This document shows positions 3,977-17,504 of a stretch of 32,000 nucleotides of DNA, in pieces; position 1 is the stretch's first letter; every line of letters starts with the position of its first letter. Location of the stretch: NCBI RefSeq assembly GCF_000981785.2, contig NZ_CP011304.1, positions 1,980,001-2,012,000 of the forward strand. The letters are read 5' to 3'. This DNA comes from Microcystis aeruginosa NIES-2549 (GTDB lineage Bacteria; Cyanobacteriota; Cyanobacteriia; Cyanobacteriales; Microcystaceae). Position numbers and translations under genes: made by a program. Below the pieces are notes generated by a model that was given only the letters and a program-made list of their open reading frames with translations, made no database searches and was not told the DNA's origin.

Positions 3977-4366
3977 CTAAGGGTAGGGTAATACATTTAA
4001 ATTTTGAATAAATCGGTAGTCTCGTTGATTCTTGGTGATAAAAGGGTAATTCCATATTATTGCTGTACCTGCAATCAAGCCATCGGCAATCAGCAAACCG
4101 TGACTTAGCCGATACAAGCGAAGTAAGTCAACCGCTTTGTCTGAAATAAGTTGGTCAATTCTGATTACATCAAACTGTTGAAGGAATTTTTCCAGCGTCC
4201 GTAACTCTGACTTGTTAGTGCAGCCAACAATTAGTTCCATTTGTGTAACTACGCTAATTGCTAATCTGGAACTTGATTGTAGCCTTTGCAGACAATTGAC
4301 TGCTTCAGAAATACCACGACCAACATCAATGATTATGTCGGTATCTACGATAGTTGAACTAGCCAT
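3977..4366 (-). CDS. vapC: PIN-domain ribonuclease toxin VapC
   Basis: IVDTDIIIDVGRG is the N-terminal PIN acidic motif. The protein is 129 aa, and its start overlaps the upstream antitoxin gene by 8 nt. Confidence 0.8.
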   Translation of the reverse strand: MASSTIVDTDIIIDVGRGISEAVNCLQRLQSSSRLAISVVTQMELIVGCTNKSELRTLEKFLQQFDVIRIDQLISDKAVDLLRLYRLSHGLLIADGLIAGTAIIWNYPFITKNQRDYRFIQNLNVLPYP

Positions 4367-4946: not shown

Positions 4947-6398
4947 CTAGCTTACCAGAGGTCGATTGCGACGACAATTATCGCAATGACCACAGCGAAA
5001 ATTATCGGCATTTTCCTGAAACCCAAAGGCATTTAAGAGAAAGTGCCAACGACAGCGACGGGTATAGAGGTAGGGAAATATCTCATTTTTGGGTTTAAAA
5101 GTCATCTTGGCTGAATTATGGCGATAAATAAGCCGATAATGAAAAGGATCGAGCCATTCTAGGCGATCGAGACTGTGTAAAAGGGAGAGAATGAGCGCAC
5201 CATCGGGAAATTCGGCACTAATCGCCTCTACTTTGCCCTCTAGGGGAATTTGGGCTAAAATTTGCCAAGCTTGTCGGTATTGGCGTTCCTGTTGGGAGTT
5301 AAAGAATTTTTGCTGGTTTTTATCGCTATTATCTAACCATCCCGTCGGTTCACTAATTAAGGTGAGAGCCTGCATTTTACCCCCATCGCGACCACCGCGG
5401 CCGATTTCCTGTAGGTATTCCGATAGTAAAGCCGGGGGTTGGTAGTGGACAACCCAACGCACATCGGGTTTATTGATACCCATGCCAAAAGCTGAGGTAC
5501 AGACAACAAAAGTTAAATCCCCCCGCAGCCAATTTTGTTCTATGTCCCGACGCTGAAAGGGGGATAAACCGGCATGATAGGCGCTGGTGCGATAGTGGAG
5601 AGATTGCAACCATGCCGCTAAATTTTCACTATGGCGACGGGAACGAGTATAGATCAGGCCGGATTGTCGAGGTTGACTGGTGAGGAAGTTTAATAGTTGA
5701 TGACGACGACAACCGGGGCTAATACATATTTTGGTGCTTAAGTCAAGGTTTTGACGGTAAGGATTTATTAAGAAAAGCTGCGGTTTTTCTAGTTGTAAGA
5801 CGCGGGTGAGAGTCTCACGGGTGGCGGGGTTAGCGGTGGCGGTAAAAGCAGCGATCGCTATTTGGCTGCCGGCCGGTTTCGATTGCAGCAGAGCGGGACG
5901 GACAGCACCGAGACGACGGTAAGCAGGACGAAAATTGTCGCCCCACTGGGTTAAACAATGGGCCTCGTCGAGGATGAGAGCGTTAATTTTAACGTGGGGA
6001 AGGGTTAATTTTGACCAGAGGGGCGGACTTAAGAGGGTTTCTGGGGAAAGATAGAGAAGTCGCAGGGTTTGATCTGCGATCGCTGCTAAGGTTTTCTTTC
6101 TCTGTTGTCGGGGGATTTCGTGATGAATCAGGGCGACGGGTAGTTTTTTGGCTAATAATTCCTCCACCTGATTTTCCATTAGGGCCACTAGGGGAGAAAT
6201 CACTAGGGTTAAGCCAGTTTTTAATAAAGCGGGCAATTGAAAACAGATAGATTTACCGAATCCCGTGGGCATGACAATCAGGGCATCTTTTGCCGCTAGA
6301 ATTGTCTCGATAATCTCCTGTTGGGGAAAGCGAAAGCTATCATAGCCCCAAATTTTCTGAAAAATAGTCTGGATGCTTTCGGTATCGTGGGAAGACAT
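4947..6398 (-). CDS. recQ: ATP-dependent DNA helicase, RecQ family (short form, no HRDC)
   Basis: FRFPQQEII, MPTGFGKSICFQLPAL (motif I), LDEAHC (DEAH box), TATA, AFGMGINKPDVRWVVHY and GRGGRDG motifs are present. There is also a C-terminal Cys cluster CGHCDNC. Confidence 0.9.
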   Translation of the reverse strand: MSSHDTESIQTIFQKIWGYDSFRFPQQEIIETILAAKDALIVMPTGFGKSICFQLPALLKTGLTLVISPLVALMENQVEELLAKKLPVALIHHEIPRQQRKKTLAAIADQTLRLLYLSPETLLSPPLWSKLTLPHVKINALILDEAHCLTQWGDNFRPAYRRLGAVRPALLQSKPAGSQIAIAAFTATANPATRETLTRVLQLEKPQLFLINPYRQNLDLSTKICISPGCRRHQLLNFLTSQPRQSGLIYTRSRRHSENLAAWLQSLHYRTSAYHAGLSPFQRRDIEQNWLRGDLTFVVCTSAFGMGINKPDVRWVVHYQPPALLSEYLQEIGRGGRDGGKMQALTLISEPTGWLDNSDKNQQKFFNSQQERQYRQAWQILAQIPLEGKVEAISAEFPDGALILSLLHSLDRLEWLDPFHYRLIYRHNSAKMTFKPKNEIFPYLYTRRCRWHFLLNAFGFQENADNFRCGHCDNCRRNRPLVS

Positions 6399-8924: not shown

Positions 8925-10115
8925 CTAACTTAAAATCAGTAGTTGGCGCTGTTGTAAGGAACGCACACCAGTTAATCCTAAAGCAACTTGAGCGTCGATT
9001 TCTCCCACGCTTAAACGACCATCACAAGCTTGTAAAAAAGCAAATTCTCTTTCCGAGAGATTAACCGGCCGATAATCGTAATCTAGAACACTTGCACTAG
9101 GCCAACCGTAAAGACAGGGATGAACTTCGGCCACTGCATTCTCTAGGACTTGATCCCCGGACCAATCGGCAGTCAAAATCGGTGGTTTAGCGAGGAAAAA
9201 TTCATAGTGGGTGATTTCTGGGTCTAATAATTCCGTCAAGCGATAACGTTCCCTTTCCCCTAAATTTTGCGCTCTAGCCATCAATTCGGGTGATTTACCC
9301 AATAAACGCTCTAATTGCCAGTAGGAAGGGTTAGAAAAGCCAATAAAAGCTAATCCTGACGCATCAATCAGGTGAAAGAGGGTATCGATATTATAGTCCA
9401 CTTCCCGGGGGTGAACATACATATCAGCGAAGGACTCATCGCGATGATTTTCCATTGACCAACGCTCTTTTTCCCGTTTCAAAATGCGATTATTTTCCGG
9501 TAGGGAGGCAAAAATCTCTCGGCCGACAGCGACCCCATCTTTATAATCCCCGCGTCGGTCTCCCTGCAAAAGTGCGATCGCAGATTGCATTAACTGGATT
9601 TCCCAGCGTCCCAATTGAGCATAGACGAAAATATGCAGCAGACCACCAGGGGCCAGTTTTTGCGCGAGGGATTGAATACCTTTAATCGGGTCCGGGAGAT
9701 GGTGCAGCACCCCGACGCAGTTAATTAAATCAAATTCTCCGGGGAGATTAGTGGCGGATTCAAGGGGTAAATGGTGAAAATCCAGAGAACCTCGGTGTTT
9801 TGCTGCGACTCCCGAACGATTACAGCGTTCTTTGGCAATTTCTAGAGCTTTTTCACTGATATCTATCGCGACTACATGAGCGAAAGGGTTGAGAGCGAGC
9901 AGATATTCGGTTCCCGCACCAGTACCACAACCTGCATCGAGAATCCGAATATCCTCTCGTTCGGGTTTACGATGACAACAAAAGTTATAGGCAGCAATCC
10001 AATTCCAGCGCCAATTGTAACCCGGAGGAGGTTCATCTAGGAGCGGTTCGGGGGGGAAAGGATAGGTATTGTAGAGACGTTGTACAGCAGTGCGAATAGT
10101 AGCGTCGTCGGACAT
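8925..10115 (-). CDS. Class I SAM-dependent methyltransferase (396 aa, extended C-terminal domain)
   Basis: ILDAGCGTGAGT is SAM-binding motif I, and DLINCVGVLHHL and APGGLLHIFVY match post-I/II motifs. The gene contains a HIP1 site, so it looks native. Confidence 0.8.
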   Translation of the reverse strand: MSDDATIRTAVQRLYNTYPFPPEPLLDEPPPGYNWRWNWIAAYNFCCHRKPEREDIRILDAGCGTGAGTEYLLALNPFAHVVAIDISEKALEIAKERCNRSGVAAKHRGSLDFHHLPLESATNLPGEFDLINCVGVLHHLPDPIKGIQSLAQKLAPGGLLHIFVYAQLGRWEIQLMQSAIALLQGDRRGDYKDGVAVGREIFASLPENNRILKREKERWSMENHRDESFADMYVHPREVDYNIDTLFHLIDASGLAFIGFSNPSYWQLERLLGKSPELMARAQNLGERERYRLTELLDPEITHYEFFLAKPPILTADWSGDQVLENAVAEVHPCLYGWPSASVLDYDYRPVNLSEREFAFLQACDGRLSVGEIDAQVALGLTGVRSLQQRQLLILS

Positions 10116-10401
10116 GAAAATTGGCAGAGTTTAGGATAACACTCGATCGATTGTCTCACAGACGGCAGCGATCGGGAAAGTCAGCCTGGTTTTTTTTGAG
10201 TTAGTCGAGGGTAAATGATAAATAATCATTATGACTATCCGGTTCTGTGCCAAAATTAGATATTATTTCTTTGGTCGATATTTTTTTCTATTCCTTGTCC
10301 TACTGTCTCTTAAGCCTATCTAAGTTTTACTGGCAATTATTCGAGAGTCATTCTCTAACAATTATCTCAAATATAAGCAAATCTTGCCGATACAAAAAAC
10401 C

Positions 10402-11682
10402 ATGAGAATTAAGTCTATAAAGCTTATTAATTATCGAGGTGCAGTCAGTTTAAACATCGACTTTCATCGGCAATTAAACGTATTTATAGGAGTTAATGGG
10501 GCGGGAAAATCAACCATTTTAGACAGTTTGGCTATTATGCTTTCATGGTTAGTTAATCGCCTAAAAAACACTAATGCCAGTGGACAACAGATTAGCGAAA
10601 CCGAGATTAATAATGGTCAGGGGACGGCTATAATTGAAATCACTGGGGTGACGGAAGATAGTCAAGAGATTACTTGGAAAATAGTAAAAACTAGGACTGG
10701 ATATATCCACGCTGGAGAACGGAGTAATTTTAGCCAATTAAATGAATACAGTCAAGAAATACAACGACAAATTACTGAACATCAAGGACAAATTAACTTA
10801 CCTTTATTTGTTTATTATTCTGTTAATCGAGCCGTGGTAGATATACCATTAAAAATTAAAACAAAACATCAATTTGATTCTCTAAGTGCCTACGAAAATG
10901 CTTTAACCAGTGGATCAGATTTTCGCACTTTTTTTGAATGGTTTCGCGAACGTGAAGATTTAGAAAATGAAAATAGAAAATATCAGGATTATCTAATTAA
11001 ACCAGAAGGTTTTTGTTTTCCTGATCCCCAATTGGAAGCGGTTCGGGAAACGATCGAACGTTTTCTACCCGATTTTACTAATCTTAGCGTCCGTCGTAAT
11101 CCTTTGAGAATGGAAGTAACAAAAAAGAATAAAATAGTTACTGTTAATCAACTTTCTGATGGAGAAAAATGTCTGATTGCTATGCTTGGAGATTTAGCTC
11201 GAAGAATGGCGATTGCTAATCCTCAAAATCCTTATCCCTTAACGGGTAATGGTGTTATTATCATTGACGAAATTGATTTACATTTACATCCTCAATGGCA
11301 AAGATTTGTAGTACCTAAATTACTAGAAGTTTTTCCTAACTGTCAATTTTTTATTTCCACCCATTCTCCTAATATTATCACTCATGTTCAACCAGAAAGT
11401 TTACACTTCATGGAACAAACAGAAATGGGAATAAAATTTCATCCCGTGCAAGAGTCCTACGGCAAAAATGTTGATCGAATTTTGGAAGATTTGATGGGAT
11501 TAGAGACAACTCGTCCCAAGGAAATCGCTGAAGCTTTGAAAGATATCTATGAACAAATTTCTCAAAATCAATTAGAGGCAGCTAAAAATAAAATCAATGA
11601 TCTCAGAGCTAAAATTCAAGATGATCCAGAATTAATTAAAGCTGAAGTTATTATTCGACGCAAGGAAATTATCGGAAAATGA
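10402..11682 (+). CDS. ptuA: ABC/SMC-type AAA ATPase, PtuA-like (Septu-type defence ATPase)
   Basis: IKSIKLINYRG...FIGVNGAGKSTILDSL (Walker A), LSDGEKCLIAMLGDLARR (signature-like), VIIIDEIDLHLHPQWQ (Walker B/D-loop) and FISTHSP (H-loop) are present. I prefer the ATG at 10402 over the track TTG at 10384. The stop overlaps the next start (ATGA). Confidence 0.7.
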   Translation: MRIKSIKLINYRGAVSLNIDFHRQLNVFIGVNGAGKSTILDSLAIMLSWLVNRLKNTNASGQQISETEINNGQGTAIIEITGVTEDSQEITWKIVKTRTGYIHAGERSNFSQLNEYSQEIQRQITEHQGQINLPLFVYYSVNRAVVDIPLKIKTKHQFDSLSAYENALTSGSDFRTFFEWFREREDLENENRKYQDYLIKPEGFCFPDPQLEAVRETIERFLPDFTNLSVRRNPLRMEVTKKNKIVTVNQLSDGEKCLIAMLGDLARRMAIANPQNPYPLTGNGVIIIDEIDLHLHPQWQRFVVPKLLEVFPNCQFFISTHSPNIITHVQPESLHFMEQTEMGIKFHPVQESYGKNVDRILEDLMGLETTRPKEIAEALKDIYEQISQNQLEAAKNKINDLRAKIQDDPELIKAEVIIRRKEIIGK

Positions 11683-12311
11683 AGTATATTAGAAAAAGAC
11701 AAGAACCACCAGAGTTTAAGAATTGGAAAGAGCAAGCTAACTCAGATTGGCAGCCCGACTTTAGAAATTTAGCGGGAAAACCAAAAGAAATACTAATTAA
11801 AGCTTTGATGACAGAACAGGGGGAAATATGTTGTTATTGTGAAAATCGATTGATTGATGGTAAATGGCATATAGAACATTTTAAACCTCAAAGTGATCCC
11901 AGTGTTGATCCCCTAGATTATGCCAATTTGCTATGTTCCTGTCAGGCAAATCTTAAGCCTGGTGAACCTCGGCACTGTGGTAATCTAAAAGATAACTGGT
12001 TTGATGAAAATCTCTTAATCTCTCCACTTAATCCCGATTGTGAGTCTCACTTTGCCTTTAACTATGATGGTACAATTAAACCTGCACAAGAAGATGATCA
12101 AAAAGCAATTAATACTATCGAAAAGTTGGGATTAAACCTCAATAAACTCAAGGCACTTCGTAAGGCAGCCATCGATCCTTTTTTGGATGAGGAGATAGAT
12201 AATGCTCAATTAAAAGTTTTTGTCAATGGATATTTATGCTTAGATGATCAACAAAGATACAATCCTTTCTGGACAACAATCAAATATTTGTTCAGTGATT
12301 TAATTGAATAA
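11679..12311 (+). CDS. ptuB: HNH endonuclease of the TIGR02646 / PtuB type
   Basis: CCYCENRL...WHIEHFKPQS is a C-x2-C plus H-x-E-H HNH core, followed by LLCSCQ...HCGNLKDNW. The protein is 210 aa and is translationally coupled to the upstream ATPase. Confidence 0.7.
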   Translation: MKYIRKRQEPPEFKNWKEQANSDWQPDFRNLAGKPKEILIKALMTEQGEICCYCENRLIDGKWHIEHFKPQSDPSVDPLDYANLLCSCQANLKPGEPRHCGNLKDNWFDENLLISPLNPDCESHFAFNYDGTIKPAQEDDQKAINTIEKLGLNLNKLKALRKAAIDPFLDEEIDNAQLKVFVNGYLCLDDQQRYNPFWTTIKYLFSDLIE

Positions 12312-12549
12312 TCTTTCCTTGACAAAAATACAAGAATTATTATAAAAGTTTGGATAAACCAGAAAAACTATAAAGTCTTATGAAGATTATTCAAGAATTA
12401 TCTCAAAAGTCAACAATTGATGAGATTCTGTCCAGATAATTGGGGTGGTAGATCAACCTTATCCGAAACAGAGATTGTTGTCGAGAGTCGGAGAGAAAAG
12501 CAATGAATATCAAGGATACGTTACAGAATGTTGTCCAGTACCTAACAGA
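12109..12549 (+). repeat. Direct repeat copy 1 (3' 200 bp of ptuB plus about 240 bp downstream)
   Basis: It aligns with 14653-15098. The central ~250 bp (about 12178-12430) are identical, and mismatches and a small indel cluster at both ends. Confidence 0.95.
12319..12346 (+). promoter_or_regulatory. Near-consensus sigma70-type promoter (TTGACA-N16-TATAAA), copy 1
   Basis: TTGACA lies at 12319-12324 and TATAAA at 12341-12346, immediately after the ptuB stop. It is duplicated at 14863-14890. Confidence 0.4.
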
Positions 12550-12910
12550 CAGGGTAAGGGTATCTTAAAAATCCTTGACAAAATGAACTTTATGTGAGTT
12601 GCTTACCCAGATGACGATTCAGGCATATTTGAGGAGAATTTGCCATCTCAATTGTTAAACAAAAATCGACCAAATGGGTCCAGTTCGTAACTATTCTGAT
12701 TGACTGGTATCACTTGAAATGCCCACACAATTTGCCAATTGTCAATAGGGTATGATACTAAATCCGTTTTTAATAGTACGATTAACTCCCAAGAATGATA
12801 AGGAGTAGCAAAATAAAAATGGTTTTTCGGTCACTCGATTGATTTCACTTGCAGTTCTATTGATTGCTAATCCTGCTACCAAAAAATTGATCGCCCGCAA
12901 AGGGAAATCG

Positions 12911-14611
12911 TTATTCCAGGGATTCTCGAAGATCACCGCCTCCCGATACGGTTTTCCAACCGATCACCAGAAAAATGATTAAAGCAACTATCGCCATAAA
13001 TAAGCCGATCGGAGTACCGATCAGATCCCGGGCGAATTGTAAACTATAGTTAGTTTTTAGATCGGCATTTCCATCCCAAACTACCGTTTTTTCCGCACCG
13101 AGAAATAACAAGTGAATCCCCCGAGAAAGAACGAACTCTCCCACGATAGTGAAGAGAATTAACTGTTTCAGTCTCACGGGTAACATGGCCAGATATTCGG
13201 TAACGATCAAGAGCAACAGAACCACGATAGGAGTCATACTCTCGCCGATAATTCCCCCTCGATGAAATCCGGGTTGCAGGAAACAACCTCCCAAAAAACC
13301 GCTCGCGAGTACCGATACTAAAAATGATCTGGGAAACAAAGGTTTACCCTTAACTTTTCCGAAAACTCGTTTCCCGAAAACCGTCAGAAGGACGGCGCTC
13401 AGGGTTATCGTTATAGAGCCGGCTAAAACACTAAAATACAAGCGAAACCATGAATTCCACAGCCGATAGCGTAAGATGTAAAACTCGCCCCCCTCTCCGG
13501 GGCCTTTCTGGATTCGATCTTGAACCGCGTCGGAAAGTTCTAGGGGATAAACGGTAGACCACGCATTGTTGAAAGCATCGGAAATTCTAACGCTCGCGGT
13601 CGCCCCCCCCGTCGTTCCCATTGCCGTCTGGAAGATAGAAGCGAGACCGAAGTGAGAGATTCCCCATAAATACCAGGGAAGACACACGGCGATCATGAGG
13701 ATTAATGGAAAAAATAACTGACGGACTACAAGAGCTAAATTTTTACGATTTACCCAGAGATTATCGATGATCGGGGCGATAACATAGAGTATAGCGGAAG
13801 GATGACTGAGAAAAGCTAATCCCCAACTAACTCCACAACCAATCCCAGAAAGCGAATAGACTCTTGTGCGGGGATTGTTTCTCAAGTCGAGATAGAAATA
13901 GATGCCGGTTAAGATATAGACCGTGGCCAATACCTTCGGCCAAGGGTAGGTGATTATATTACTCAAATAGGGACTAAAAGCCACGAGGAAAAAGGCTAAC
14001 GGAATTAACGACGGACGCAGAAAGAGAGGGATTAGGAGGGTCAGGAATACTCCTGGTAAAATTGCGGTAATTTGATAAACCGCAAATGAATTTTCTAAAA
14101 GTGCCAGATAATAACTAGAAAATAGATTAAATAAAGGAGTTCTAGAAGTAACATTATAAGTTCCAAAGTAAACCGTATCGGTTTTCTGAAGTCCCAAAAA
14201 AATTTGAGCGATATCGAAGTGCATCCACCAATCCCCGTAGTAAAATCCCCCACTGTAAAGCACGACGAAGAATTGCATCCCTAGCAGGACGAGCCAGAAC
14301 AAGATCGCTAGGTATAGCCATCTATAGTTTTCTCTTTCTTCCGCTTGCCACAATTGTCGCGTCAGTAACCATAGAGAGATAATAAATAAACCAGCCGTCG
14401 CTAACAGAAAAAAAGTTCTTCCGGAAAAGCCACAAAGAAAATTAACGAAAGCGATCGCCGATTGTAAAGCCATTCCCCAAGCACCAGCAAGGGCCATACA
14501 TTCCTTGACGGTAAAGCGCGAGATCGCTCTCAGGCTAACATAGCCGAGGGTGAAAGTTAGGGTTAGCGAGATCGCCCCGAAAAAAAACAACTGTAAAAAG
14601 CTTATATTCAC
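12911..14611 (-). CDS. Large polytopic membrane protein (566 aa, at least 12 predicted TM segments); possibly a GT-C-fold (ArnT/PMT-like) glycosyltransferase
   Basis: GTG start. The sequence is hydrophobic almost throughout, with short loops, and an aromatic/acidic loop YYGDWWMHFDIAQ follows the early TM segments. The functional assignment is only a guess from overall architecture. Confidence 0.6.
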   Translation of the reverse strand: MNISFLQLFFFGAISLTLTFTLGYVSLRAISRFTVKECMALAGAWGMALQSAIAFVNFLCGFSGRTFFLLATAGLFIISLWLLTRQLWQAEERENYRWLYLAILFWLVLLGMQFFVVLYSGGFYYGDWWMHFDIAQIFLGLQKTDTVYFGTYNVTSRTPLFNLFSSYYLALLENSFAVYQITAILPGVFLTLLIPLFLRPSLIPLAFFLVAFSPYLSNIITYPWPKVLATVYILTGIYFYLDLRNNPRTRVYSLSGIGCGVSWGLAFLSHPSAILYVIAPIIDNLWVNRKNLALVVRQLFFPLILMIAVCLPWYLWGISHFGLASIFQTAMGTTGGATASVRISDAFNNAWSTVYPLELSDAVQDRIQKGPGEGGEFYILRYRLWNSWFRLYFSVLAGSITITLSAVLLTVFGKRVFGKVKGKPLFPRSFLVSVLASGFLGGCFLQPGFHRGGIIGESMTPIVVLLLLIVTEYLAMLPVRLKQLILFTIVGEFVLSRGIHLLFLGAEKTVVWDGNADLKTNYSLQFARDLIGTPIGLFMAIVALIIFLVIGWKTVSGGGDLRESLE

Positions 14612-14654
14612 GATTAACTATTTACCTGAATCTATTTTAGTGACCCCATCTTTT

Positions 14655-14855
14655 AATACTATCGAAAAGTTGGGATTAAACCTCAACAAAATTAAAGAAC
14701 TTCGTCACAAAGCCATCGAGCTTTTTTTGGATGAGGAGATAGATAATGCTCAATTAAAAGTTTTTGTCAATGGATATTTATGCTTAGATGATCAACAAAG
14801 ATACAATCCTTTCTGGACAACAATCAAATATTTGTTCAGTGATTTAATTGAATAA
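14655..14855 (+). pseudogene. 3' remnant of a second, slightly divergent ptuB allele
   Basis: It encodes NTIEKLGLNLNKIKELRHKAIELFLDEEIDNAQLKVFVNGYLCLDDQQRYNPFWTTIKYLFSDLIE, matching the last 66 residues of PtuB. The first part has several substitutions and the last 46 residues are identical. There is no HNH core and no upstream ATPase. Confidence 0.85.
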
Positions 14856-14862
14856 TCTTTCC

Positions 14863-14890
14863 TTGACAAAAATACAAGAATTATTATAAA
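14863..14890 (+). promoter_or_regulatory. Near-consensus sigma70-type promoter (TTGACA-N16-TATAAA), copy 2
   Basis: TTGACA lies at 14863-14868 and TATAAA at 14885-14890. Confidence 0.4.
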
Positions 14891-15051
14891 AGTTTGGATA
14901 AACCAGAAAAACTATAAAGTCTTATGAAGATTATTCAAGAATTATCTCAAAAGTCAACAATTGATGAGATTCTGGCCAGATAATTGGGATGGAGGGGTGA
15001 ATCAACCTGATCCGAAAAAGAGATTGTTGTCGAGAGTCGGAGAGAAAAGCA

Positions 15052-15201
15052 ATGAATATCAAGGATACGTTACACAATTTTGTCCAGTACCTAACAGAGG
15101 CTTTCGCTCGCATTTTTAGTCCCAGCAATGATGAATATCCCGATGTGGGGATGCAGCCTTTTGATTCTGAACCTTACCATGCTCCCAAGGGTAATTCTTA
15201 A
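15052..15201 (+). CDS. Candidate 49-aa small protein (MNIKDTLHNFVQYLTEAFARIFSPSNDEYPDVGMQPFDSEPYHAPKGNS)
   Basis: This ATG ORF is below the track size cut-off and lies downstream of the duplicated promoter. Its first 15 codons are also present in repeat copy 1 (12503-), where the frame is cut by the repeat junction. Confidence 0.3.
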   Translation: MNIKDTLHNFVQYLTEAFARIFSPSNDEYPDVGMQPFDSEPYHAPKGNS

Positions 15202-15280
15202 CTAAAAATGACGGGTAATTGCTTTGAGATAAAAGCTATGGGTAGGGATAATAACCCTACCTGATTTTATAGAAAAATAA

Positions 15281-15661
15281 CTAATTCTCTGCTTGCCAAT
15301 CAGGACAACTATCACTATCCCAACCGTAGGGATGGAAACCGCAGACGAGAAGATTACCTCCGTAGATATAACCGTGATAATTACGGCAACCGATACAAGC
15401 AGGATGGGTGTTAGGATCGGGGTTAACCTTAGGAGTGAGGGTAAAATCCGAGGGTTCATCTGATTCCGAAAAGGGGTATTCATCGAGGTTAAAAAATTCT
15501 TCTAATTCCTGGGGTAAAACCTCTTGAATAAACTGTTCCAGATCGATGATAATCTCCTCATTAATTTCTTCGATAGTTTGGGCTACTTCTTGGAAAAAAG
15601 TTTCAATTCCCACCGCCACAGTTTCGATCACTTCCCAAAAATCTTTCTGCCAATCGTCCAT
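15281..15661 (-). CDS. Hypothetical acidic protein with a C-terminal Cys/His cluster
   Basis: This 126-aa ATG ORF has a very acidic N-terminal two-thirds. The C-terminus reads HPACIGCRNYHGYIYGGNLLVCGFHPYGWDSDSCPDW. I chose it over the overlapping ORF 15202-15483. Confidence 0.55.
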   Translation of the reverse strand: MDDWQKDFWEVIETVAVGIETFFQEVAQTIEEINEEIIIDLEQFIQEVLPQELEEFFNLDEYPFSESDEPSDFTLTPKVNPDPNTHPACIGCRNYHGYIYGGNLLVCGFHPYGWDSDSCPDWQAEN

Positions 15662-16517: not shown

Positions 16518-17504
16518 ATGTTTCCTATTCATCGCCCCCGTCGTCTGCGTCAAACCCCTCAAATGCGCCGTCTGGTGAGTGAAACCGTCTTGACAGCCAA
16601 TGACTTTATCTATCCCCTTTTCGCCACGACGGGGGAAGGTATCGCTCAGGAAGTGAAATCGATGCCGGGGGTGTACCAATTATCAATCGATAAAATTGTT
16701 AACGAAGCCAAGGAAGTGCGTGATTTAGGAATCCCAGCGATTATTTTATTCGGGCTGCCAGAAAGTAAAGACACAGAGGCGACGGGAGCGTGGCACGATC
16801 ATGGTATTGTGCAAAAAGCGGCCACAGCAATTAAAGAGGCAGTTCCCGATCTACTCATTGTCGCCGATACTTGTTTGTGTGAATATACCAACCACGGTCA
16901 TTGTGGTTATCTGCAAACGGGAGATTTAACCGGCAGGGTGTTAAACGATCCCACTCTGGAATTATTGCAAAAAACCGCCGTTTCCCAGGTAAAAGCAGGA
17001 GTGGATATCATTGCACCTTCGGGAATGATGGATGGTTTTGTGCAGGCAATTCGTCAAGGATTGGATGAGGCGGGTTATAGTGATACACCGATTCTTTCCT
17101 ATACGGCTAAATATGCCTCTGCCTATTATGGTCCGTTTCGGGATGCGGCGGATTCTACCCCCCAATTTGGCGATCGCAGAACCTACCAAATGGATCCGGG
17201 TAATGCCAGGGAAGCTTTAAAAGAGGTGGAATTAGATGTATTAGAGGGAGCAGATATGTTAATGGTTAAACCTGCTCTATCTTATATGGATATTATCTGG
17301 AGAATCAAGGAAATGACTAATTTACCCGTGGCTGCCTACAATGTATCGGGGGAATATTCAATGATTAAAGCGGCGGCGTTAAATGGCTGGATTGACGAAA
17401 AACGGGTGACTTTAGAGACTTTAACCAGCTTTAAACGGGCGGGGGCTGATATTATCTTAACCTACCACGCTAAGGATGCCGTGCGCTGGTTAGCAGAGGG
17501 TTAA
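16518..17504 (+). CDS. hemB: Porphobilinogen synthase (delta-aminolevulinic acid dehydratase)
   Basis: RPRRLR near the N-terminus, the [14 protein letters not shown] metal-site region, MVKPA (active-site Lys) and YNVSGEY blocks are all characteristic of HemB. Confidence 0.95.

Follow-up and report, generated by a model that had tools for sequence, protein, structure and literature searches.

A ptuAB gene pair of Microcystis aeruginosa NIES-2549 very probably encodes an intact Septu type I system without a retron partner

The stretch of DNA analysed here, called the window below, comprises 32,000 nt of Microcystis aeruginosa NIES-2549 (contig NZ_CP011304.1, positions 1,980,001 to 2,012,000 of the forward strand; coordinates are positions within the window). 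Between a divergently oriented methyltransferase gene and the hemB region it carries two adjacent, co-oriented genes, ptuA and ptuB, which encode an ABC/SMC-type ATPase and an HNH nuclease, respectively (Table 1). The stop codon of ptuA and the start codon of ptuB overlap in an ATGA at 11679-11682, and the two genes are translationally coupled in one operon. The open frame of ptuA reaches upstream as far as a TTG at 10384 (10384-11682). The likely start is nevertheless the ATG at 10402, because the resulting 426 aa correspond to the length of nearly all homologues and because every profile alignment begins there. An earlier annotation of this DNA, made from the letters alone and referred to as the first-pass annotation, had described a coupled pair with an ATGA overlap and an ATPase of about 426 aa, compared it to PtuA and PtuB of the Septu anti-phage systems, and noted the lack of a retron partner. 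These points hold up in the present analysis, while the 268 bp that it gave for the upstream spacer is the distance to the TTG; to the ATG used by the homologues it is 286 nt. Taken as a whole, we consider it very probable that the two genes form an intact Septu anti-phage system of type I that stands alone, without a retron partner.

Table 1. Features of the ptuAB locus and its surroundings (window positions; aa numbering from the ATG of ptuA and the start of ptuB)
Feature	Position	Strand	Remarks
Class-I S-adenosylmethionine-dependent methyltransferase	8925-10115	-	flank of ptuAB
Intergenic region, presumed promoter and 5' untranslated region	10116..10401	+	between divergent methyltransferase gene and ptuA
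ptuAB cassette extent	10157..12339	+	set by comparison with L006, a Microcystis genome without the cassette
ptuA, ABC/SMC-type ATPase, 426 aa	10402..11682	+	profiles, PDB relatives, AlphaFold2 model
PtuA Walker A GVNGAGKST (K36)	10489..10515	+	aa 30-38; N32, G33, G35, K36, S37 invariant
PtuA ABC signature-like LSDGEK	11152..11169	+	aa 251-256; L251, S252, G254, E255, K256 invariant
PtuA Walker B and D-loop IIIDEIDLHLHP (D289, E290)	11257..11292	+	aa 286-297; D289, E290, H294, H296 invariant
PtuA H-loop STHSP	11356..11370	+	aa 319-323; S319, T320, S322, P323 invariant, H321 nearly so
ptuB, TIGR02646-type HNH nuclease, 210 aa	11679..12311	+	profiles, PDB relatives
PtuB HNH/zinc-finger core	11829..11990	+	CCYCE 51-55, WHIEHFKP 63-70, N83, CSC 86-88, HCGNLK 99-104
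Direct repeat R1	12109..12549	+	441 nt: last 203 nt of ptuB and 238 nt downstream, including truncated small-gene 5' end
Strain-specific insertion, 2,103 nt	12550..14652	-	missing in 11 other Microcystis species representatives
566-aa polytopic membrane protein	12911..14611	-	carried by the insertion
ptuB' open reading frame, PtuB C-terminal domain only (~residues 144-210)	14640-14855	+	different ptuB allele
Direct repeat R2	14653..15098	+	ptuB 3' fragment (ptuB', to 14855), upstream region and 5' end of intact 49-aa gene
49-aa gene	15052..15201	+	native to flank; conserved; no family match
hemB (ALAD)	16518-17504		flank of ptuAB

Both proteins were identified with PADLOC, Pfam and NCBIfam profiles and by sequence searches of the PDB, supplemented with an AlphaFold2 model and Foldseek. 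In PADLOC, PtuA matches best the PtuA1 profile PDLC00271, at an E-value of 3.9e-160 and over positions 1-418 of 421, and PtuB the PtuB1 profile PDLC00320, at an E-value of 1.2e-101 and over the entire profile (1-202 of 202). PtuB also scores 101 bits against TIGR02646, for which the cut-off is 52.15. Pfam recognises AAA_21, AAA_15, AAA_23 and SMC_N in PtuA and gives no match for PtuB. Among solved structures, PtuA is related to the retron Ec83 ATPase (E 1.5e-57), to Ec78/Eco7 PtuA (about 1e-42) and to E. coli Septu PtuA (8EE4, 1.8e-36), and PtuB to the chains 22bv_F, 9vh1_F and 8ee7_C (E 3e-10 to 6e-7). The PtuA model (pLDDT, the predicted local confidence, 81) resembles PtuA chains with Foldseek E-values of 1e-32 to 1e-25 and template-modelling (TM) scores of 0.63-0.75. 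It ends in three helices (residues 373-425) which, judging from the model, correspond to the C-terminal extension that holds PtuB (PMC12819146), and the helical C-terminal domain of PtuB is covered by the PADLOC profile.

All the motifs quoted in the first-pass annotation are present in the two proteins. Those of PtuA were compared in 50 homologues with 60-97% identity and proved invariant or, in the case of H321, nearly so. In PtuB the catalytic residues H64/H67, N83 and H99 and the Cys ligands are all found, and the CxxC, HIEH, N and HCG positions are identical in alignments with the solved PtuB chains. Sixteen residues separate H67 from N83, the same spacing as between H75 and N91 of the PtuB from the E. 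coli Septu system EcB88, both of which are essential (PMC13096335), and we infer that H67/N83 are their equivalents. By its sequence PtuB can be classified as an HNH nuclease of the TIGR02646 type, whose catalytic and zinc-binding core is intact.

The ATPase core of PtuA is closer in sequence to the PtuA of retrons than to that of the E. coli Septu system (198.9 bits with the Ec83 ATPase and 352.9 bits with NF041760 vs 129.4 bits with 8ee4). Its closest relatives of known structure are the PtuAB complexes of the type I-A retrons Ec78/Eco7 and Ec83 (PDB 9KJX, 9NNB, 9VH1, 9E8Z; 26-34% identity), whose PtuB has an HNH core and a C-terminal domain like the window protein. This proximity would fit a scenario in which ptuAB is the orphan effector module of an Ec78/Ec83-like type I-A retron, with the reverse transcriptase (RT) and the non-coding RNA (ncRNA) located elsewhere in the genome or lost. 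Such retrons, however, possess an RT, an ncRNA, multicopy single-stranded DNA (msDNA) as well as an N-terminal extension of PtuA, all missing from the window pair, and no RT or ncRNA was found in the 32 kb or at the syntenic locus of other Microcystis. No RT domain was detected by Pfam or PADLOC in any open reading frame (ORF) of at least 100 aa scanned in the window, and the genes called on the source contig include none for an RT. Rfam, whose coverage of retron ncRNAs is incomplete, gave no match at the gathering threshold for the whole window and none at E<=1 for positions 9900-15400. The 286-nt spacer upstream of ptuA folds no better than shuffled sequences (z = -0.40). In view of the lacking Rfam match and this unremarkable fold we rejected the presence of a retron ncRNA or another structured RNA around ptuAB. 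The two NCBIfam equivalogs for the Ec78 retron remain below their cut-offs (NF041760, 352.9 vs 500 bits; NF041761, 116.5 vs 150 bits), and the PADLOC retron models ATPase_I-A and HNH_I-A yield partial matches only, with scores far lower than those of PtuA1 and PtuB1.

The architecture of PtuA itself is also informative in this respect. Retron-associated PtuA has gained an extension at its N-terminus (residues 2-65 in Ec78) which binds the RT and the ncRNA, and a helix-loop-helix called the helical flap (~261-274 in Ec78) which wraps the msDNA; both are missing from stand-alone PtuA (PMC12819146). Aligned with the Ec83 ATPase, residue 1 of the window PtuA pairs with residue 61, so that the retron-type extension of ~60 aa is missing, and Ec83 residues 257-318 correspond to just 17 residues of PtuA. 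The window protein is therefore ~45 residues shorter than retron-type PtuA at the position of the flap, and to judge from this position the missing segment is probably the helical flap itself. Without an RT, an ncRNA or the N-terminal extension, and with a shortened flap region, ptuAB has the architecture of a stand-alone system. This distinction rests on the sequence alignment, since the Foldseek TM scores of the PtuA model are similar for stand-alone and retron PtuA and do not discriminate between them. The orphan-effector scenario can be regarded as already largely refuted and we attribute to it a minimal probability.

The first-pass annotation had also suggested that the short ATPase might define a compact Septu subtype. 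We reject this, as a PtuA of ~425 aa represents a large size class that has already been modelled: the best PADLOC PtuA profile has 421 positions and several other PtuA1 profiles have 420-455. A homologue search with PtuA returned 5,390 proteins at E<=1e-20, and beyond the Microcystis group the homologues measure 424-446 aa (nearly all 424-428 aa) with 59-65% identity. Homologues of 424-428 aa number in the thousands. The PADLOC type I models (PDLC00271, PDLC00320) match both window proteins from end to end and describe pairs of the same sizes with the same coupled two-gene layout. No difference was detectable, and ptuAB of the window belongs to that subfamily.

The nearest pairs outside Microcystis (PtuA 60-63%, PtuB 57% identical) resemble the window pair in size (424-427 aa and 211-217 aa) and in the overlap of stop and start codons. 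One of them resides on the cyanobacterial plasmid pANN4383.02 of Annamia dubia, where a PtuA with 63% identity is coupled to ptuB. Two more come from unrelated metagenomic contigs (L098, 6001-7916; L099, 6001-7913), in which ptuAB is inserted between pglX and pglZ of a BREX operon, with ptuB overlapping the pglZ start (PtuA 60-62%, PtuB 57% identical). The location is what distinguishes them from the window pair, which stands alone between housekeeping genes. L099 encodes in addition a second AAA_15/21 ATPase and a small gene between brxC and pglX. The existence of BREX-nested and plasmid-borne relatives supports a defence role and mobility of ptuAB.

The BREX context also has a bearing on whether the pair could belong to a different class of ABC-ATPase and nuclease systems (Gabija, PARIS, OLD or AbiEii-type) or constitute a selfish addiction or plasmid-exclusion module. 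The Pfam description of AAA_21 does name AbiEii, and PtuA shows weak partial matches to the ATPase heads of AriA (E 3.6e-26, residues 7-198 only), GajA and OLD (E about 1e-4 to 1e-5). But matches of this kind are confined to the shared ATPase head, and E-values of 1e-8 to 1e-26 compare with 1e-160 for PtuA. There is no TOPRIM domain and no AriB- or GajB-like partner either, the partner being a TIGR02646 HNH nuclease, and the presence of ptuAB homologues in BREX defence operons likewise argues against these alternatives. Any of them appears very improbable.

The E. coli Septu PtuAB (PDB 8EE4, 8EE7, 8EEA, 8SUX) and EcB88 likewise consist of an ATPase and an HNH protein without a retron. The E. 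coli PtuA has the same fold as the window PtuA (Foldseek E 1e-25 to 1e-28, TM 0.64-0.67), and like the latter it appears without an N-terminal extension or helical flap. The Walker A, Walker B and HNH residues that are essential in EcB88 are conserved in the window pair. Differences concern the identity of the two PtuA proteins, which is 22-24% in a structural alignment, and the sizes (PtuA 465 aa vs 426 aa here, PtuB 243 aa vs 210 aa here).

How the system might operate can be deduced from these characterised E. coli homologues, which share ~22-34% identity with the window proteins. As summarised in PMC12819146 for the stand-alone E. coli system, PtuA self-assembles into an inflammasome-like oligomer carrying PtuB, DNA nicking is lowered by ATP, and the system is sensitised by a phage tail-fibre protein. 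Defence by EcB88 requires the Walker A, Walker B and HNH residues, and the tRNA target of the E. coli system is tRNA-Tyr, in its variable loop (PMC13096335). By analogy, PtuA would oligomerise and hold PtuB through a contact between its C-terminal extension and PtuB's C-terminal domain, and the complex would stay latent in healthy cells. Infection by a cyanophage would then release the nuclease, which would nick DNA and/or cleave a host tRNA (tRNA-Tyr in E. coli) and arrest the infected cell, thereby halting phage production. Both the ATPase and the HNH sites should be required. The most likely mode of action is that of a latent ATPase-nuclease complex which, once activated by infection, would arrest the cell by nuclease attack on DNA and/or a tRNA.

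We compared the locus among Microcystis, using the adjacent methyltransferase gene as an anchor and one genome per species, and recovered 11 Microcystis loci. The order methyltransferase, ptuA ptuB, orf126 orf140 hemB is the same as in the window in seven of them (L003, L004, L005, L007, L009, L011, L012), with a frameshifted ptuB in L007. In L008 (8101-9566) ptuA is disrupted, ptuB is cut short after residue 92, and a PIN-type gene comes next. In L006 (8132-9960) homology to the window ends at 10156 and restarts at 12340, the cassette being replaced by 1.8 kb of unrelated RTX-like repeat pseudogene debris. The ptuAB site of L010 (7000-9900) is rearranged beside insertion sequence (IS) transposase fragments, and L017 ends too early for ptuAB to be scored. 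Beyond Microcystis, neither ptuAB nor the other queried flank genes accompany the methyltransferase in Hydrococcus, Chroococcopsis and a Microcystaceae metagenome-assembled genome. No clean empty ptuAB site was found, L006 being replaced, L010 rearranged and the non-Microcystis relatives devoid of synteny.

Pairwise comparisons with seven orthologues by the method of Nei and Gojobori gave ratios of nonsynonymous to synonymous substitution rates (dN/dS) of 0.20-0.33 for ptuA (dS 0.055-0.083) and 0.18-0.83 for ptuB (dS 0.057-0.109), compared to 0.04-0.16 for the methyltransferase gene (dS 0.08-0.13) and 0.02-0.08 for hemB (dS 0.11-0.17). Synonymous divergence of ptuAB thus equals that of the adjacent genes or falls short of it. 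Since synteny is kept in most species representatives and dS is similar to that of the neighbours, ptuAB appears to have been inherited together with them for a long time, from before the sampled Microcystis diversity arose. Selection on ptuAB is purifying but, to judge by the substitution rates, relaxed, and the pair has occasionally been lost; defence genes that a cell can do without usually behave in this way.

The composition of the locus nevertheless remains that of a foreign segment. The GC content of the block 10157-12339 is 0.346 vs 0.425 for the remainder of the window, and GC at third codon positions is 0.23 in ptuA and 0.27 in ptuB compared to 0.40-0.48 in the flanking housekeeping genes. 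The 2,183-nt segment with the lowest GC content of the whole 32 kb begins at 10211, and the AT-richness of the block is beyond chance within the window. The first-pass annotation had already considered the block AT-rich and devoid of the HIP1 motif (GCGATCGC). The windowed GC analysis substantiates the first observation. As for the second, no HIP1 site indeed lies between 9582 and 14450, but this carries no statistical weight: with 14 sites in the 32-kb window (0.29 expected), the Poisson probability that a 2.2-kb stretch has none is 0.38, and elsewhere in the window there are gaps of 3.3-4.5 kb. The absence of HIP1 was therefore dismissed as a sign of foreign origin.

A database survey of PtuA sequences points in the same direction as the base composition. 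It found more than 70 clusters (at 90% identity) of full-length proteins of 424-426 aa with 90-98% identity to the window PtuA, and every one with a named source comes from Microcystis. Between identities of >90% within Microcystis and <=65% outside the genus there is a gap. Together, the foreign composition and the identity gap argue for an acquisition by the ancestor of the genus and not by this strain. The cassette's point of entry in the Microcystis ancestor would have lain between the methyltransferase gene, a housekeeping gene, and the region of hemB. The horizontal origin proposed in the first-pass annotation can accordingly be retained as an old event, while a recent arrival is contradicted by the synteny in 7 of 11 loci and the neighbour-like dS. 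Universal conservation with native composition, which the first-pass annotation had named as a refutation of its reading, does not apply: some lineages lack the locus or have it replaced or decayed, and its composition is non-native.

This erosion raises the question of whether ptuAB is a decaying, non-functional Septu remnant which hitch-hikes with the neighbouring housekeeping genes. The dN/dS of ptuB reaches 0.61-0.83 vs some alleles, and the frameshift in L007, the broken ptuA and truncated ptuB of L008, the replacement in L006 and the rearrangement in L010 all agree with such a view. On the other hand, the two ORFs are undamaged in this strain and in the majority of species representatives, no catalytic motif has been lost, the dN/dS of ptuA is 0.20-0.33, and full-length PtuA proteins with 90-98% identity make up the more than 70 clusters described above. 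That the pair is such a remnant is in our opinion very unlikely. Several points do weigh against an intact anti-phage system in this strain, though. The constraint on ptuB is relaxed vs some alleles (dN/dS up to 0.83). The L007 frameshift and the L008 truncation imply that the locus is dispensable, so it could be inactive here despite its intact ORFs. With identities of 22-34% to the PtuA and PtuB proteins studied by experiment, trigger and substrate may differ. A limited literature search on Septu in Microcystis found nothing relevant.

A search for a tRNA or att-type integration site revealed no tRNA or tmRNA gene in the 32-kb window. A 31-nt repeat (10350-10380 vs 12386-12416, 74% identical), tried as a cassette boundary, was judged a chance match. 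A terminator-like hairpin followed by a T-run is situated at 10170-10191 (+), in the divergent intergenic region at the left cassette edge, and the spacer upstream of ptuA shows indel variation among Microcystis strains around 10216-10335. A TTGACA...TATAAA arrangement just 3' of ptuB was noticed by eye. Scanning 10000-15400 for promoters and terminators revealed no enrichment (19 vs 15.1 and 5 vs 5.2 in the shuffled expectation).

The only unusual feature nearby is a strain-specific insertion just downstream of ptuAB, which carries the gene for a probable membrane sugar transferase and is flanked by the direct repeats R1 and R2. Where the region is retained in the other Microcystis species representatives, the repeat sequence is present once. 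The arrangement is shared by two further assemblies (GCA_046308755.1 and GCA_046306875.1) and hence is not an assembly artefact. Both ptuB and the 49-aa gene are intact after the insertion; a truncated copy of the latter is left at about 12504-12565. We had considered the 49-aa gene as a third Septu component and rejected it, since it is kept in L006, which is without ptuAB. The second repeat begins with a duplicated 3' end of ptuB, ptuB', whose ORF is probably a pseudogene; 28 nt separate its start from that of the inserted membrane protein gene on the other strand.

The sites at which the two repeats differ are distributed in a characteristic manner. R1 is of the resident type at its left end (the ptuB allele of L007/L011) and odd at its right end. 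R2 has an L003/L009-type ptuB allele on the left and the common type on the right, and the middle ~250 nt of both are identical. Such a reciprocal mosaic is expected from a single crossover (Campbell-type) between the chromosome and a donor molecule with a homologous copy; unequal exchange or another route to the insertion is possible. No native locus of the inserted gene was found, all copies found in Microcystis having the same context. Short metagenomic contigs with the inserted gene end in sequences resembling an IS or a miniature inverted-repeat transposable element (MITE). In some metagenomic populations different sequence precedes or follows the gene (L087, 1898-2012; L088, 1-117; L089, 1862-1909); by eye, one of these extensions is similar to a transposase C-terminus and another is an inverted-repeat, MITE-like sequence. 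Such differences point to additional IS activity near the insertion.

The inserted 566-aa protein has no match in Pfam (including the glycosyltransferase C, GT-C, families), NCBIfam or PADLOC, and with 25 homologue clusters found it belongs to a very rare family. Its AlphaFold2 model is of high confidence (pLDDT 87.9, predicted TM score 0.92). In Foldseek, GT-C enzymes account for 12 of the 14 top-ranking PDB matches (probability 0.94-1.00, with TM scores of only 0.3-0.44), among them ArnT 5f15 (best E, 1.8e-4), EmbA/B/C, Pmt4, AglB and ALG3/9/12. Besides their transmembrane fold, GT-C enzymes are expected to have a conserved acidic residue in the first extracytoplasmic loop. The residues G126, D127, W128, W129 and H131 are invariant among the homologues, and distant homologues are encoded in glycan-synthesis clusters, one of them directly after a GtrA-like gene. 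Going by the predicted fold, the protein is probably a GT-C-type glycosyltransferase that depends on a lipid-linked sugar and acts on a surface glycan.

Any link between this protein and Septu is speculation. One can imagine that ptuB', if expressed, may serve as a decoy which tunes the assembly or toxicity of PtuAB, because PtuB's C-terminal domain docks onto PtuA's C-terminal extension in the solved complexes. The co-inserted glycosyltransferase-like protein may for its part change a glycan on the cell surface that phages use as a receptor. Decoy and GT-C gene would then make up one composite islet of defence functions, which homologous recombination would pass from strain to strain. This whole reading, in which the insertion is not neutral, strikes us as very improbable.

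The other neighbours in the window are mostly housekeeping genes, including those for a RecQ-like helicase, YbeY, a diacylglycerol kinase, a DUF4327 protein and CemA. The closest relatives of the window's genes all come from Microcystis. The left part of the window contains mobile, toxin-antitoxin-like or defence-like genes (1101-1637, 2567-2995, 3977-4366 and 4947-6398). They comprise a serine resolvase, an aspartyl-protease-like protein of 142 aa with a match to the PADLOC candidate PDC-M52B (E 2e-49), a PIN-domain gene and the RecQ-like helicase, which also matches DpdF models. An IS607-like element with a TnpB gene is located just outside the window, by the serine resolvase.

The ptuAB locus adds a genus-wide cyanobacterial example to a defence family that has already been catalogued and structurally characterised, and in this sense it changes little; PADLOC or a similar standard tool would pick it up automatically. 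Microcystis is a bloom-forming genus under heavy cyanophage pressure, and it keeps this Septu pair at a fixed chromosomal site with polymorphism in both presence/absence and decay. PtuA proteins of the same ~425-aa clade are nested in BREX operons in two unrelated metagenomic contigs. The insertion downstream, with its 441-nt target duplication, offers a clear-cut case from nature of a gene gained by recombination in Microcystis. Finally, the ATPase core of this PtuA is closer to retron PtuA than the E. coli reference Septu is, yet the protein is without the N-terminal extension and probably without the flap, and the pair could for this reason help to trace how retrons recruited PtuAB.

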